From Candidatus Binataceae bacterium (lineage in GTDB: Bacteria; Desulfobacterota; Binatia; Binatales; Binataceae), in the NCBI GenBank assembly GCA_963798375.1, contig CAWCTG010000007.1, positions 7,851 through 71,850 of the forward strand: a stretch of DNA of 64,000 bases, written 5' to 3'. Position 1 is the first letter of the stretch. Each line of letters starts with the position of its first letter. The position numbers and the translations under genes are program-made. This document shows, one piece after another, positions 50,280-56,095 of this stretch. The notes under the pieces were generated by a model. That model did no database searches. It was not told the origin of the DNA and saw only the letters and a list, made by a program, of their open reading frames with translations.

Positions 50280-51440
50280 ATGGATCAGGCACGAAAAGAT
50301 CGGAAGACACGGCAGATAACGATCGGTGGCGCCAAGGTCGGCGGCGATGCGCCCGTGGTGGTGCAATCGATGTGCGCGACGCGAACGATCGACGTCGATC
50401 AAACAGTCGCCCAGGCCCATCAGCTGGCGAACGCAGGCGCGGGAATCGTCCGGATCGCGATGGACAGCGAGAAAGAAATCCCGGCGCTCAAGGAAATCCG
50501 CGCGCAGACCAAGGGAATCGTGCTGTCGGTCGATTTGCAGGAGAACTACAGGATCGCCGGCCGGGTTGCGCCGCACGTTGACAAGATTCGCTACAACCCG
50601 GGCCATCTGCACCATATGGAAAAGTCGAAGACGATCGAGCAGAAGGTGAAATCGCTGGTCGATGTGGCCCGCGACAACAACCTCGCGATTCGCATCGGCG
50701 TGAACTGCGGCTCGGTCGCGCCCGCGTTTCTGGACAAGTATCCGGGCGATCAACTGGCCGCGATCGTCGAGTCGGCGGCGTACCATTGCGACCTGATGGA
50801 CGAGCTCGGCTTCACGCGCTTCGTCGTGTCGCTCAAGGATTCCGATCCCAACAAGGTGATGGACGCGAATCGGCGCTTCTCGAAGCGCCGCCCGGACGTG
50901 CCGATCCATCTTGGCGTCACGGAGGCGGGGTTGCCGCCCGACGGAATCATCAAGACCCGGATAGCATTCGAAAAGCTGCTCGCGCAGGGCATCGGCGATA
51001 CGATCCGCGTCTCGCTCACGCTGCCCAACGAGCGCAAGCACGAGGAAGTGATCGTCGGGCACAAAATTATCCAGGACGTCGCGGCGGGCAGGTTCATCTC
51101 GGTGCCCGATTTCGGCGCCGGGCTCAACATCATCTCGTGCCCGTCGTGCTCGCGGGTCGAGAACGAGAAGTTCGTCGAGCTGGCGCAGCAGGTCAAGGAA
51201 CTCACGACTTACGCCCGGATGCACAAGATCACGATTGCGGTGATGGGATGTCGAGTTAACGGGCCGGGCGAGACCGATGACGCCGATCTTGGGTTATGGT
51301 GCGGTCCGACCACGGTGAATCTCAAGAAGAAAGATAAGAAGATAGGTTATTTCGGCTACGAAGAAGTGCTGCCCAAGCTGCGCGCCGAGCTGGATCGGTT
51401 GATTGCCGAGCGCTCCGCCACTGCTGCCGCTACGAATTAG
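50280..51440 (+). CDS. ispG: 4-hydroxy-3-methylbut-2-en-1-yl diphosphate synthase (flavodoxin), extended form
   Basis: [24 protein letters not shown]-terminal TIM-barrel motif and the C-terminal [12 protein letters not shown]...GCRVNGPGE [4Fe-4S] motif. The ORF is open back to a TTG at 50019. Start chosen at ATG 50280. Confidence 0.85.
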
Positions 51441-51745
51441 GCGAGACGCGCTTGCGCGCGAGATCCTTCGGCTGTACTCAGCATGACACAAAAAACGCGC
51501 GCGCGGGCTCCTTCTTGATCAATCCCTTCTAACAGGGCGAAGCCCGCATCTTCTCTAACCGTCGGGTGCAGGGGTCGCCCCTGGCCGTTGGCACGGCTGG
51601 CCAGTAATAGGAGACCGCGCGCCCGTGGTTCTTCCATTGCGTAGTCACGAAAAGATGCGCTGCGCAGATTTTCGTGTCTTCTTAATACTGGGTGCAGAGC
51701 CTGTCCTGAGCGAAGCCGAAGGAGGTCACCCCTGCCCAAGGAGGT

Positions 51746-51768
51746 GCGGAACCCAGGGTGGGTTCCGC
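51746..51768 (+). other. stable hairpin GCGGAACCCA-ggg-TGGGTTCCGC at the high-GC/low-GC boundary
   Basis: 10-bp perfect stem. Followed by ATTTAATT and an abrupt fall in GC content. Confidence 0.4.
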
Positions 51769-51812
51769 ATTTAATTAAGTTCTCCCGTCGAACACTCCGG
51801 CGTCCGGCGTTG

Positions 51813-51843
51813 TGCAAAGGGAAGTATGCTGGTGTTGACTACC
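51813..51843. repeat. terminal inverted repeat (left)
   Basis: Reverse-complement match to 54166-54196 (about 29 of 31 positions). Confidence 0.65.
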
Positions 51844-51858
51844 AGCCCGTGAAGTGCG

Positions 51859-52140
51859 ATGATTCCGGCGATGAGGAACCAGACGAACCGCCTACACGTG
51901 CTGTTCGGATTGCTGGTCGATTTGGCGCGTTTGAGCTGCTTCTTTTTTCCGCCGTCTGGCGAACCGCTGCTTCTGGTTGCGGTAGTGGGGACTGGCCTTT
52001 TCCTCGTATCGCTTACACTTGTGGCAGTAGAAGAAGAGAATCTTTTGGGCGTATCCACTGCTCATGTCGCCAGTGTAGCGCGTTGTCAGCGTGCCGAAAA
52101 GCGCAGTACGATGCTCCAAGAGAACAACCCTCATGGCTGA
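51859..52140 (+). CDS. hypothetical small membrane protein (passenger ORF A)
   Basis: Hydrophobic stretch. The stop overlaps the start of the next gene (ATGGCTGA). The antisense 58-aa basic ORF at 51892-52065 is an alternative. Confidence 0.3.
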   Translation: MIPAMRNQTNRLHVLFGLLVDLARLSCFFFPPSGEPLLLVAVVGTGLFLVSLTLVAVEEENLLGVSTAHVASVARCQRAEKRSTMLQENNPHG

Positions 52141-52789
52141 CTCGAAATTTCGTGAATCTCTGCGTGATTTCCTTACGCAATACCCGTTGTGGACTGTGGT
52201 TGATCAGTTCCTCGATTCTAAATGGGGGAAAAGATTTCTCGCTCTTCTTGGGGGTGCTGTGTTGACCGGCATTGGGTGGATAGCTTCTCTCTTTACCGCC
52301 CTGAGCAGCGGTCTGAAATATGGACTTTTCGGTGCATTCGGCGCCTCTCTCTTTGCAGCCTTAGTCATCTATTTGACGAAAGAGAAAGAAATGACCATCA
52401 CAGCTAATACCAATATACATCGGACTATTACGCCTGAACAACGACAACTTTTTGCAGCTATGGTAAAGCGTTTAAGCCTACAAGATAAATCAGTTCATAT
52501 TAAAGGCTCAAAGCATGACGGGGAAATGCAAGATTATTGGCATACACTGGTCGAGCTATTCCGGGCGAACGGTATGGTCACGGGTGGTCAAATCGAAGAT
52601 TCTCCGTCCTATGATCCGCGTGGCTTAGTCCTTGTCGTGCAAGAACCGCAAGTTGATCGTCTCATAGGACATGCGAAAACCATTTTTGAATTGCTCCGCT
52701 CGGCGCAGATTCCTTTTGAGCTTGGCTACGATGGAAGGCCGAGACAGCAAGAAGGTTGGTGTTATTTATATGTAGGTCGTCGAAGCTAG
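52133..52789 (+). CDS. hypothetical protein with two N-terminal TM helices and a C-terminal soluble domain (passenger ORF B)
   Basis: 218-aa ORF in low-GC DNA with atypical codon usage. No recognisable family. Confidence 0.5.
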   Translation: MADSKFRESLRDFLTQYPLWTVVDQFLDSKWGKRFLALLGGAVLTGIGWIASLFTALSSGLKYGLFGAFGASLFAALVIYLTKEKEMTITANTNIHRTITPEQRQLFAAMVKRLSLQDKSVHIKGSKHDGEMQDYWHTLVELFRANGMVTGGQIEDSPSYDPRGLVLVVQEPQVDRLIGHAKTIFELLRSAQIPFELGYDGRPRQQEGWCYLYVGRRS

Positions 52790-53124
52790 TCGCCACGAAA
52801 CACATCACACAAATTTATTTTCTTATGAGCATAGCAATTATGAATCGTCTTTATACACGGCCCAAAGTACGCATCAAGCGCCCCGATACTGAGAAGCATC
52901 TCCGCGCGTTGGTCTTTCGCTCTCGCATAATCACTGATTGCTTGCAGTCGAAGCGGATTGCTACTAAAGTGACCTTCAAGCGCGGATTTCTCAGCGTACA
53001 GGCACAGAGCTTCGATACATATTATATTATCCTTCGTTGTGTCGCAGTCGAGCGCTCGCAAGTCCGGCGGAGCTATCGCTATCGTGCTGACCACTATAAG
53101 AGCCGTAAGCATGAGTCGCTTCAT
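52786..53124 (-). CDS. small secreted cysteine-rich protein (passenger ORF C)
   Basis: Signal peptide. Six Cys in about 90 mature residues. Convergent 4-nt overlap with ORF B. Confidence 0.5.
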   Translation of the reverse strand: MKRLMLTALIVVSTIAIAPPDLRALDCDTTKDNIICIEALCLYAEKSALEGHFSSNPLRLQAISDYARAKDQRAEMLLSIGALDAYFGPCIKTIHNCYAHKKINLCDVFRGD

Positions 53125-53211
53125 AGGTATCCTAAATCCTTGTACGTTTTCTTGTGCGCTGTTCGCTGGCGTCGTTCTCAGATAGCTGAGACATTCGCCA
53201 GTGTTCGTGTC

Positions 53212-54138
53212 TCAGCACCCTGCTATCGCTTTGCCGAATATATCGGCTTCTTTTCGATTGTTAAAACGGAATTGAAACTCATTCAGGTACAGCGGCAGAT
53301 GTTTCCTGCTAACATTGTGGTACGTCCCGATGATTCCGCGCTTGAGCAGCGCCCAAAACGAATCAATCGACTGAGTATGAACCTTGCCACGTACATATTC
53401 GCCAGCACTATGGCGGCCGCTCTCATGCCGGAATTTGTCACTCAGCTTTTGATTGCCGTATGCTTCATCGGTAGCAACCAATTCCACCCTGTCCGAAACA
53501 ACCCTGCGAACGAATCCATCGAGCGTCGGCGTATCGGTAGTCTCGATCATTTTGCAGACCACGTTGCCCTTACGGGAAATCGCGCCGATGACTGGCTGCT
53601 TGCCGGTCGTGCCTTTGGTGTTTGGGCCGATGCGCTTGCTGCGATGTTTGTTCTTTTCCTTTCCACCAATATACGTCTCATCAACTTCTACGATGCCCAT
53701 CAGTTGACGGAAATCGGGGTCGAACATACCGGCTCGCAGACGCATACACATATACCAAGCCGAGCGATACGAGCCGGTTCCAAGCAAACGATGAATCTGC
53801 AATGCGCTGATGCCCTTCTTGGAAGTCAGCATGAGCAGCAGAGTCTTAAACCACGAACGCAACGGCAGTTTGGTTTCCTCGAAGATCGTTCCGGTCTTGA
53901 GCGAGAAGCGATAAGGCGAGCGATTATCCTTGCCGCATTTCTTGCACTGCCAATGCCACGGACGCGCCGTGCTCTCATAAACGTGATCGTTATTGCAACG
54001 CGGGCATTTCGGGCCAGCGGGCCAGCGGCGCGAGAGCAGATACGTCCAGCACGATTGCTCGTCCGGGAACATCTGCTCGAAGTCGGAGAGCGTCATTTGT
54101 CGCGTAAATTTCGGTTCGTTTTCTTTCCAATCCTTCAT
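53212..54138 (-). CDS. IS1595 family transposase (ISXO2-like DDE domain with N-terminal transposase zinc-ribbon)
   Basis: ...WPAGPKCPRCNNDHVY...WQCKKCGK Zn ribbon, and an ISXO2-like region (...GIVEVDETYIGGKEKNKH...VATDEAYGNQKL...). Confidence 0.85.
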   Translation of the reverse strand: MKDWKENEPKFTRQMTLSDFEQMFPDEQSCWTYLLSRRWPAGPKCPRCNNDHVYESTARPWHWQCKKCGKDNRSPYRFSLKTGTIFEETKLPLRSWFKTLLLMLTSKKGISALQIHRLLGTGSYRSAWYMCMRLRAGMFDPDFRQLMGIVEVDETYIGGKEKNKHRSKRIGPNTKGTTGKQPVIGAISRKGNVVCKMIETTDTPTLDGFVRRVVSDRVELVATDEAYGNQKLSDKFRHESGRHSAGEYVRGKVHTQSIDSFWALLKRGIIGTYHNVSRKHLPLYLNEFQFRFNNRKEADIFGKAIAGC

Positions 54139-54165
54139 GATCCATATATTAGCAAAAAGCAGCGT

Positions 54166-54196
54166 GGTAGTCAACACCAGCATACTTCCCTATGCA
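54166..54196. repeat. terminal inverted repeat (right)
   Basis: GGTAGTCAACACCAGCATACTTCCCTATGCA is the reverse complement of the left inverted repeat. It is immediately followed by the hairpin GCTCTCC-ctgtga-GGAGAGC (54199-54218). Confidence 0.65.
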
Positions 54197-54228
54197 AAGC
54201 TCTCCCTGTGAGGAGAGCCTGGCAAGAA

Positions 54229-54345
54229 TCAGATCTTCTGATTCGTTTTGCGCCAGTCGGCGAGGAAGCGCTCAAGCCCGAGATCCGTCAGCGGATCATG
54301 CAGCGTCTGTTTGAGCACCGCGAACGGCACCGTCGCGATATCGGC
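54229..54345. repeat. degenerate direct copy A of the 3' end of the tal gene (about 92% identity to 55445-55561)
   Basis: Alignable base-by-base to the last ~115 nt of tal, including the stop codon. Confidence 0.75.
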
Positions 54346-54390
54346 AGCGATCCCGTCAAGCCGCTATTCGTGTTTCGTTCTCCTGAACTA

Positions 54391-54414
54391 AAAACGTTTC
54401 ACGTGAAACGTTTT
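54391..54414. repeat. 24-bp perfect palindrome AAAACGTTTCACGTGAAACGTTTT
   Basis: Read directly from the sequence. CACGTG core. Lies between tal-3' copies A and B. Confidence 0.7.
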
Positions 54415-54544
54415 CCTGAAAACCTTAGCAGCACAGCACCATTTTCGACCGCTTTTGAAAAAAGTGACTGCCATTGCACGTGCCTGCTTAACATTGGGCG
54501 CAGGGGCCAGCCCACCCACCTGAGTCAGAAGCAAGGACCGGAAG

Positions 54545-54649
54545 TTAGATCTTCTGATTCGTCTTGCGCCAGTCGGCCAGGAAGCGCTCGAGCCCGAGAT
54601 CCGTCAGCGGATGATGCAGCGTCTGTTTGAGCGCTGCGAACGGCACTGT
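54545..54649. repeat. degenerate direct copy B of the 3' end of the tal gene
   Basis: About 105 nt alignable to 55445-55550, with divergence after ...GAACGGCACTGT. Confidence 0.75.
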
Positions 54650-54692
54650 AGCGACCTGCGCATCTCTCTAACCGGGCACAACGCCGGCACCG

Positions 54693-55444: not shown

Positions 55445-56095
55445 TCAGATCTTCTGGTTGGTCTTGCGCCAGTCGGCCAGGAAGCGCTCGAGCCCGAGAT
55501 CCGTCAGCGGATGATGCAGCGTCTGCTTGAGCACCGCGAACGGCACTGTCGCGATATCGGCGCCGACCGCGGCCGCACGCAGCAGATGCGTCGTGTTGCG
55601 CACCGACGCGACCAGTACCTCCGCCGGATAGTCGTAGTTCGACAGTATCTGCACCATATCCTCGACGATCTGCATTCCGTCCTGTCCGATGTCATCGAGC
55701 CGTCCGATAAACGGCGACAGAAACGAGGCGCCGACTTTGGCAGCCGCGAGCGCCTGGAGCGGGGTGAAGATCAGCGTGACGTTGACGCGGATGCCGCGTT
55801 TGGCGAGCGCGCGGGTCGCCTTGAGGCCTTCGACGATCATTGGGCATTTCACGACGATGTTCTTGTGGAGCTTGGCGAGCTTCTCGCCCTCCTCGATCAT
55901 CGCAGAAGCTTCAGTTGCGACGACTTCAGCGCTGATCGGCCCGTCGACGATTTCGCAAATCTCTCGCAGCACGTCGTGATACGGGCGGCCGGTTTTCGCC
56001 ATCAAGGATGGATTGGTGGTGACTCCGTCGATGAGCCCCCAACTGGCGGCCTCGCGAATCTCGGCGACTTCTGCGGTATCGATAAAATATTTCAT
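55445..56095 (-). CDS. tal: transaldolase / fructose-6-phosphate aldolase family (short form)
   Basis: [13 protein letters not shown]...GVTTNPSL...VKCPM match the Fsa/TalC-like class-I aldolase family (about 216 aa). Confidence 0.85.

Follow-up and report, generated by a model that had tools for sequence, protein, structure and literature searches.

A probable IS1595-family transporter insertion sequence with variable cargo in Candidatus Binatus

A stretch of 64,000 nucleotides of contig CAWCTG010000007.1 (positions 7,851 to 71,850, assembly GCA_963798375.1), called the window below, very probably holds one intact copy of an IS1595-family insertion sequence (IS) of the 'transporter IS' (tIS) kind, with cargo genes inside its ends. 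The host is Candidatus Binatus (Binataceae), an uncultured soil lineage, and the insertion point is a repeat-rich spacer running from ispG to a glyoxalase gene. The concept of the transporter IS comes from the IS1595 family, on which it was defined (Siguier, Gagnevin & Chandler 2009, cited in PMC3129680 and PMC4611040). Two genes unrelated to transposition, the open reading frames (ORFs) ORF B and ORF C, are enclosed by its repeats (51819-54190), as cargo is in relatives of the element. Of the IS1595 family features, both transposase domains, the catalytic positions, the short terminal repeats and the 8-bp duplication are present, and the element is real and probably functional.

Element boundaries and transposase

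Boundaries were called from 62 fetched loci (given, like all loci here, by L numbers) with closely related transposase genes, almost all of them from Binataceae metagenome-assembled genomes. Perfect 8-bp duplications flank the relatives in L021 (GTGTGGTG), L016 (GATGTTCG), L027 (CAAAAGAA), L040 (TTCCCATT) and L018 (TATGGGAA). The ends of the relatives start with GGGAAG, GGGGAT or GGCAAT; end sequences are GGGAAGTAT in the window and GGGGATTAT, GGCAATTAT and GGCGATTAT in relatives. The register of these duplications sets the ends of the window copy, a 26-bp perfect inverted repeat on either side followed by an 8-bp target duplication (Table 1). The preliminary description of this DNA, made from the sequence alone, had placed near-perfect inverted repeats of about 31 bp at the two ends. 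Such repeats do exist, 51813-51844 and 54165-54196 being complementary at 31 of 32 positions, but they are 6 bp too long on each side, because the TGCA palindrome in the duplication mimics additional inverted repeat; the outer 6 bp belong to the duplication, and the 31/32-bp repeats were rejected as true ends. The window has just two occurrences of the 26-nt core GGGAAGTATGCTGGTGTTGACTACCA, where 0 are expected (100 dinucleotide-preserving shuffles).

The sharp fall in GC content remarked on earlier is evident: GC drops from 0.615 elsewhere in the window to 0.503 within the element, with a minimum of 0.42-0.46 over the cargo. The same element, 99-99.8% identical, is present in at least 10 independent ENA, JGI and NCBI assemblies, and is therefore no artefact of a single assembly, as might have been feared of the inverted-repeat match.

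An IS1595/ISXO2-type transposase reads inward from the right repeat, as initially described. It passes the cut-offs of Pfam DDE_Tnp_IS1595 (PF12762; E 2.2e-38, 132 bits, cut-off 27), Pfam Zn_ribbon_IS1595 (PF12760; E 1.1e-10, 41.7 bits, cut-off 25.4), with a visible CPRC...CKKC motif, and NCBIfam transpos_IS1595 (NF033547; 191 bits, cut-off 75). The catalytic positions are intact (D in VEVDETY, D in VATDEAY, D in QSIDSFW, K at +7); at the third position, 15 of 19 relatives have E, and the sub-lineage of the window copy has D. Identity is 60-80% to about 40 Binataceae copies and at most 40% to annotated plasmid-borne IS1595 transposases. Translation probably starts at ATG 54141, not at 54183, since relatives align from that methionine. 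The -10 hexamer of the promoter-like site found upstream ends 4 nt before this ATG, and the leader would therefore be very short or absent. An inward-facing TTGACT hexamer was also found inside the left repeat by consensus scan.

Differences between the window copy and the other assemblies lie nearly all in about 270 bp of the transposase gene (53803-54074) and are mostly synonymous, the cargo being invariant. Such a pattern is expected from gene conversion by a paralogous IS copy, and the patch resembles a tract of that kind.

Opposite the transposase runs a stop-free antisense frame (52756-54630, plus strand, 624 aa). In some assemblies gene callers put a 596-aa antisense protein in the place of the transposase (L007 and L008, 1168/1586-2958/3376), so that this frame is an annotation trap for the IS lineage.

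Table 1. Features of the element and of its flanks (positions in the window)
Feature	Position	Strand	Description
Whole element	51819-54190		2,372 bp; true ends set by the register of relatives' duplications
Target-site duplication, left copy	51811-51818		TGTGCAAA; 7/8 vs TATGCAAA
Left terminal inverted repeat (IRL)	51819-51844	+	GGGAAGTATGCTGGTGTTGACTACCA; 26/26 vs reverse complement of 54165-54190
ORFr, backbone gene	51892-52065	-	57-aa very basic protein MSSGYAQKILFFYCHKCKRYEEKASPHYRNQKQRFARRRKKE..., conserved CxxC...PH
Divergent block, ORFr to cargo gene	52066-52132		conserved, non-coding; putative regulatory
Promoter-like site in divergent block	52083-52112	faces ORF B	TTGTCA-18-TACGAT; consensus scan
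ORF B, passenger gene	52133-52789	+	218 aa; two transmembrane (TM) helices and alpha/beta domain
ORF B N-module	52133-52399	+	N-terminal helices and two TM helices
ORF B C-module	~52418-52786	+	alpha/beta domain
ORF C, passenger gene	52786-53124	-	112 aa; Sec-type signal peptide and helical bundle, 4 conserved cysteines
Hairpin over transposase stop codon	53185-53216	-	GCTGAGACA, 14-nt loop with CTGGCG, TGTCTCAGC; 9-bp stem
IS1595-family transposase	53212-54141	-	309 aa from ATG 54141; ORF open from 54183 (323 codons, 53212-54183)
Promoter-like site for transposase	54146-54174	-	TTGACT-17-TAATAT, TG-extended; partly within right repeat; consensus scan
Right terminal inverted repeat (IRR)	54165-54190	-	perfect 26-nt partner of IRL
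Target-site duplication, right copy	54191-54198		TATGCAAA
Hairpin outside the element	54200-54217		CTCTCCCTGTGAGGAGAG; target context, not IS; sole such motif in window
Reconstructed empty site for window copy			...GGCGTT[G/A]TGCAAAGCTCTCCC...

Insertion sites

A different IS1595 tIS occupies the same spacer in L083 (L083 1200-3905), a locus of the same species with the glyoxalase side 100% and ispG 97% identical. The ends of this sister element start with GGGGATTAG..., its 8-bp duplication, TTTTAGTT, is perfect, and its cargo consists of a 261-aa protein and a PIN-domain protein (PF01850, 1.6e-12). The window is a clean empty site for it, the target being present as a single uninterrupted site at 54386-54393. 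Two different transporter ISs thus entered one spacer, the window being empty for that of L083, and the ispG-glyoxalase spacer is therefore an insertion hotspot. L083 in turn lacks window positions 51422-54251, and the window element is therefore not fixed in the species. No precise empty site for the window copy was found by look-up of the flanking proteins: that with the ispG protein came back empty, and that with the glyoxalase returned L083, which is rearranged, and L084, where the contig ends at the repeat.

A metagenome scan for the 25-nt end led to L086, an unrelated locus with the same left end and an ORFr 91% identical, in which ORF C is found with a different membrane protein. The window copy (54191-54217) and the L086 copy (1764-1815) both adjoin the 8-mer TATGCAAA and, at the same distance from the element, resembling CTCTCC...GGAGAG hairpins, but at opposite ends of the elements. 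The recurrence of 8-mer and hairpin at two unrelated loci suggests a sequence- or structure-specific choice of target.

The spacer region has further repeats. An intergenic repeat of about 108-118 bp is present in three copies in the window (54228-54345, 54547-54654 and 55447-55554), 92-94% identical to those of L083, which also number three. Two of the three window copies, positioned downstream of the glyoxalase gene and of genes next to it, bear a spurious 33-aa ORF. The repeat looks like a repetitive extragenic palindromic (REP) sequence or a miniature inverted-repeat transposable element. A perfect palindrome with an 11-bp stem (TGCGGAACCCA-GGG-TGGGTTCCGCA, 51745-51769) is found 50 bp off the left end of the element, and palindromes like it flank IS1595 copies in L041, L051, L063 and L066; these may be REP-type sequences or preferred insertion neighbourhoods.

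Backbone and passenger genes

About 20 related Binataceae elements, 1.8-3.5 kb in size, share the transposase, the stop-codon hairpin, the small gene ORFr and the divergent block, and differ in cargo. All Binataceae copies with identifiable ends carry cargo; distant copies in other phyla (L069, L071, L072) are plain elements of about 1.0 kb. Most of the cargo proteins of the 20 or so elements have N-terminal membrane helices or signal peptides, and none of ten scanned against Pfam matched a family.

ORFr is counted with the backbone and not with the cargo because about 16 related elements have it on the same strand as the transposase gene, either near the far repeat, as in the window, or directly after that gene (L016, L037, L047). 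In its frame, pairwise differences among 22 distinct sequences are distributed 2822/2469/5026 over the three codon positions, with zero stops. A small membrane ORF had been proposed on the opposite strand (ORF A, 51859-52140, plus). In the frame of ORF A the variable position would be codon position 1; by tblastn, the ORFr product is 72% identical to L018 (E 6e-30) vs 52% for ORF A (E 2e-14), and matches L016 with E 9e-15, where ORF A has no match. ORF A was rejected as a gene, being the antisense shadow of ORFr, in whose frame the coding signal sits. The three passengers initially listed are thus reduced to two real ones, ORF B and ORF C. A version of the small protein extended to 75-80 aa (one NCBI call) was also rejected: in the 51 bp upstream of the ORFr ATG, the differences over 14 elements lack codon periodicity (564/544/505), and in-frame stops interrupt two members. 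Homologues of the ORFr protein fall into 35 clusters, mostly of 50-57 aa, every one of them named 'hypothetical' and free of Pfam domains; the protein itself has no match in Pfam, NCBIfam, PADLOC or PHROGs.

The hairpin over the transposase stop codon was analyzed in 15 related elements, where 94% of cells pair, vs 26-39% in slid-partner controls. Compensatory changes are found at three pairs, the same helix is returned by RNAalifold, and the CTGGCG of the loop is near-invariant. The hairpin may terminate transcription, act in translation or stability, or bind a protein. An Rfam search gave sub-threshold chance hits only. The divergent block is conserved across 14 elements carrying different cargo, and its TTGnCn-18-TACnAT hexamers point at the adjoining cargo gene. 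Elements of this kind are already known; what may be new in this lineage is the 57-aa gene, the stop-codon hairpin and the divergent block.

ORF B had been described as a 218-aa protein with two TM helices and a soluble domain, an architecture borne out by the AlphaFold model (mean predicted local distance difference test score, pLDDT, 87.6), in which hydrophobic helices span residues 30-56 and 59-90 and an alpha/beta domain residues 101-214 (pLDDT >90). By the positive-inside rule, N-terminus and C-domain presumably face the cytoplasm, since KWGKRF precedes helix 1 and the loop between the helices is short. Across 1.84 billion representatives, exhaustive searching with phmmer returned no more than 29 hits. 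These cover either residues 1 to ~90 or residues ~95 to 218, never both, the exceptions being the query itself and P0002, matched in two stretches. Divergence of the C-domain from L016 is biased to third codon positions (43/37/86). Fold searches with this domain gave marginal likenesses to 6q10, the soluble domain of a mycobacterial secreted protein, and to 2m5y, the C-terminal domain of Rv0431. A LytR_C-type identity was considered and finds no support in sequence or profile: 12 family members have no Pfam match, and a profile built on the domain has 0 matches among PDB sequences at E up to 10. Plasmid and phage collections hold no match to ORF B.

ORF C is convergent with ORF B, the two overlapping by 4 bp. 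Of the small secreted protein with six cysteines announced earlier, convergent orientation and signal peptide stand, but only four of the six cysteines are conserved. The helical domain likely holds two disulfides, and the protein is presumably periplasmic. A phrog_3586 match (E 0.004), which falls on the signal peptide, was set aside. One homologue was found in the searched representatives; copies are 95% identical (3' end) in L086 and 66% identical in L019. The partner of ORF C changes from ORF B in the window to a 244-aa multi-TM protein in L086 and a 252-aa protein with two TM helices in L019. By hhalign, the ORF B C-domain is not significantly matched in these other partners (E 0.037, 0.099, 0.74). 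All four genes of the element, transposase, ORFr, ORF B and ORF C, are open and diverge in the manner of coding sequences.

The N half of ORF B, its C half and ORF C recombine independently. The N-module is found beside ORFr in L011, L018, L020, L022 and L033, the C-domain together with IS1595 backbone genes in L016, L020 and L088. DNA homology to L011 and L018 ends exactly at 52399, just past the second membrane helix, and restarts at 53163-53164, about 48 bp beyond the transposase stop. Breakpoints fall within and between genes (52113, 52399, 52786 and 53163), which suggests ordinary recombination. Where the context suffices, the passengers travel with IS1595 transposases or ORFr at other loci too (L016, L018, L020, L022, L033, L086 and L088, with a transposase remnant in L011), and a syntenic occurrence without transposase, which would have spoken for resident genes, is not what is seen. 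The exceptions are L090, with a distant homologue and no transposase called, and L019, L089 and L091, on contigs too short to judge. In the mechanism proposed, the whole unit would move by DDE cut-or-copy transposition through its two repeats, the right one bearing the transposase promoter; the conserved divergent block would be the promoter of whichever cargo gene adjoins it, and cargo would be swapped by recombination at module borders.

Two further observations concern the cargo of relatives. A recurrent type of cargo in L016, L022, L037, L039, L040, L042, L047 and L059 has a signal peptide or low-complexity region, one membrane helix and then a domain with the motif '...F.N.G..PA...' plus the conserved segment '...YGC/F.RY.D.F...F.W'; this type matches nothing in Pfam and looks like a further family of IS-borne proteins. 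L018 and L023 differ in length (~3.02 and 2.57 kb) and cargo, and have identical flanks and the same duplication, TATGGGAA; either one cargo took the place of another in situ, or two insertions went into a repeated target.

Standing of the element and role of its cargo

Several points weigh against an intact and functional transporter IS and the role proposed below for its passengers. The target duplication of the window copy has one mismatch, and the absence of 51422-54251 from L083 is part of a larger rearrangement, not a precise empty site. All 18 contigs read that have an identical ORF B (10 shown) carry the element at the same site, and no second copy with identical cargo was found among the contigs carrying exact ORF B. 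Promoter assignments, for transposase and cargo alike, are consensus matches only. The polymorphism, restricted as it is to the transposase patch, is uninformative on selection on the cargo. As to function, the passengers match no recognised family, as had been remarked: ORF B finds nothing in Pfam, NCBIfam, PADLOC or PHROGs, ORF C nothing in Pfam, NCBIfam or PADLOC and nothing usable in PHROGs. The association with defence amounts to two anecdotes, a PIN cargo and an AbiTii neighbour.

Because of the architecture and the company of these genes, the cargo is tentatively read as a membrane-embedded conflict module, active in phage exclusion or abortive infection or of addiction type, in which the two-TM hairpin of ORF B would be the effector and the soluble domain the sensor. 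Two hints come from the PIN-domain cargo of the L083 sister element and from P0033, a distant homologue of the ORF B C-domain encoded two genes from an AbiTii gene (PADLOC 5.9e-42). PADLOC returned 0 families for ORF B, ORF C and ORFr, and the cargo genes of L019, L083 and L086 likewise matched none. The P0033 locus (L090 2360-5693) is a four-gene islet with ccmE on one side and an acetyltransferase gene on the other, and no transposase was called in it. Anti-phage membrane effectors made of a single protein combine an N-terminal TM hairpin with a C-terminal sensor domain. ORF B may be compared with them for its architecture, its carriage on a mobile element and the shuffling of anchor and soluble domain; it differs in having no PADLOC match and no known signalling enzyme or partner nearby, and ORF C has no counterpart in such systems.

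It is doubtful, if still conceivable, that ORF B and ORF C are ordinary accessory proteins of inner membrane and periplasm, hitch-hiking on the IS and serving the envelope or adaptation to a niche. Most cargo of the related elements is membrane-anchored or exported, in agreement with this, as is the weak fold likeness of the ORF B C-domain to 6q10 and 2m5y. The families are however very rare, with the 29 hits for ORF B and the single homologue of ORF C given above, and nearly confined to IS1595 elements, and their turnover exceeds what is expected of housekeeping envelope proteins. The ORF B domain is moreover predicted to be cytoplasmic, unlike that of the secreted protein, and no Pfam family is related to it at the sequence level. 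The resemblance to 6q10 and to the Rv0431 domain is one of marginal scores, with no sequence or profile relation and the opposite predicted compartment.

That the insertion is an immobile relic, fixed and decaying, with ORFs no longer functional, is improbable. The single copy in the window, the common site of the 18 contigs and the mismatched duplication fit a relic, as do the frameshifted or truncated transposases of several relatives (L011, L016, L052, L059). Against it, the repeats match at 26/26, the transposase is full length with intact catalytic positions, the four genes are open with coding-type divergence, a near-identical backbone occurs elsewhere (L086), and the sister element has both a perfect duplication and an empty site in the window. 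Least likely of all, a bacteriocin or toxin with its immunity gene, in which the producer would be protected by ORF B, in the membrane, from ORF C, a disulfide-rich toxin that it exports, is disfavoured because ORF C is not kept with one partner, remaining 95% (L086) and 66% (L019) identical while its neighbour is replaced by proteins with no demonstrable similarity to ORF B, where cognate toxin-immunity pairs usually co-vary; the C-domain of ORF B also occurs without ORF C (L016, L088), the element has no genes for leader-peptide processing or export, and no toxin, bacteriocin or immunity family was matched in Pfam, NCBIfam, PADLOC or PHROGs, fold hits being at noise level.

Among known systems, the IS1595 transporter ISs are the closest: zinc-ribbon and DDE_Tnp_IS1595 transposase, short repeats, 8-bp duplication, enclosed passengers and a size in the 2-3.5 kb range are common to both. 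The window lineage differs in the low identity to annotated plasmid-borne transposases, in D for E at the third catalytic position, and in the extra 57-aa gene, stop-codon hairpin and divergent block. The ISNwi1/'ISNwi1+' subgroup of ISfinder presumably has GGnnATTAT ends and an 8-bp duplication; the ends GGGGATTAT and GGCAATTAT of relatives would fit, and GGGAAGTAT of the window copy would be one position off. Integron-like cassette platforms offer an analogy, as a constant backbone with a promoter-like block adjoins a slot for unrelated genes; unlike them, the window element has no integrase and no attC-like site. Polymorphic toxins of the contact-dependent inhibition (CDI) and Rhs types likewise combine a constant N-terminal module with alternative C-terminal domains and a variable small neighbour gene. 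ORF B differs from these in having no secretion or delivery domain, its N-module being just a two-TM hairpin of ~90 aa, and ORF C is convergent, not downstream, and does not co-vary with the C-terminal domain.

The widest reading, for now a speculative one and rather unlikely, is that the Binataceae IS1595 lineage is a dedicated platform for cargo exchange, and not an IS with the odd gene picked up, and that its constant backbone mobilises and expresses rapidly shuffled, membrane-anchored conflict modules. The parts of this backbone, as speculative as the whole, would be the transposase, the stop-codon hairpin, the 57-aa CxxC protein, binding DNA or RNA, and the divergent promoter; ORF B would be a new two-TM effector joined to a new cytoplasmic sensor domain, and ORF C its periplasmic partner.

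For annotation, the boundaries of the element are corrected, and a plausible 'membrane ORF' turns out to be the antisense shadow of a real small gene. An IS1595 lineage is documented in Binataceae, a family with no cultured representatives, in which every copy with identifiable ends carries cargo and the backbone includes a small protein and two non-coding features. The cargo families count as 'dark matter': their folds are predicted with confidence, purifying selection acts on them, and hardly any member is found outside an IS. Should the cargo consist of conflict systems, elements of this small size would offer a cheap route to new ones, and otherwise the element is an ordinary transporter IS; if the lineage is indeed a cargo-exchange platform, it would be a previously unrecognised vehicle for the turnover of defence genes in an uncultured phylum.

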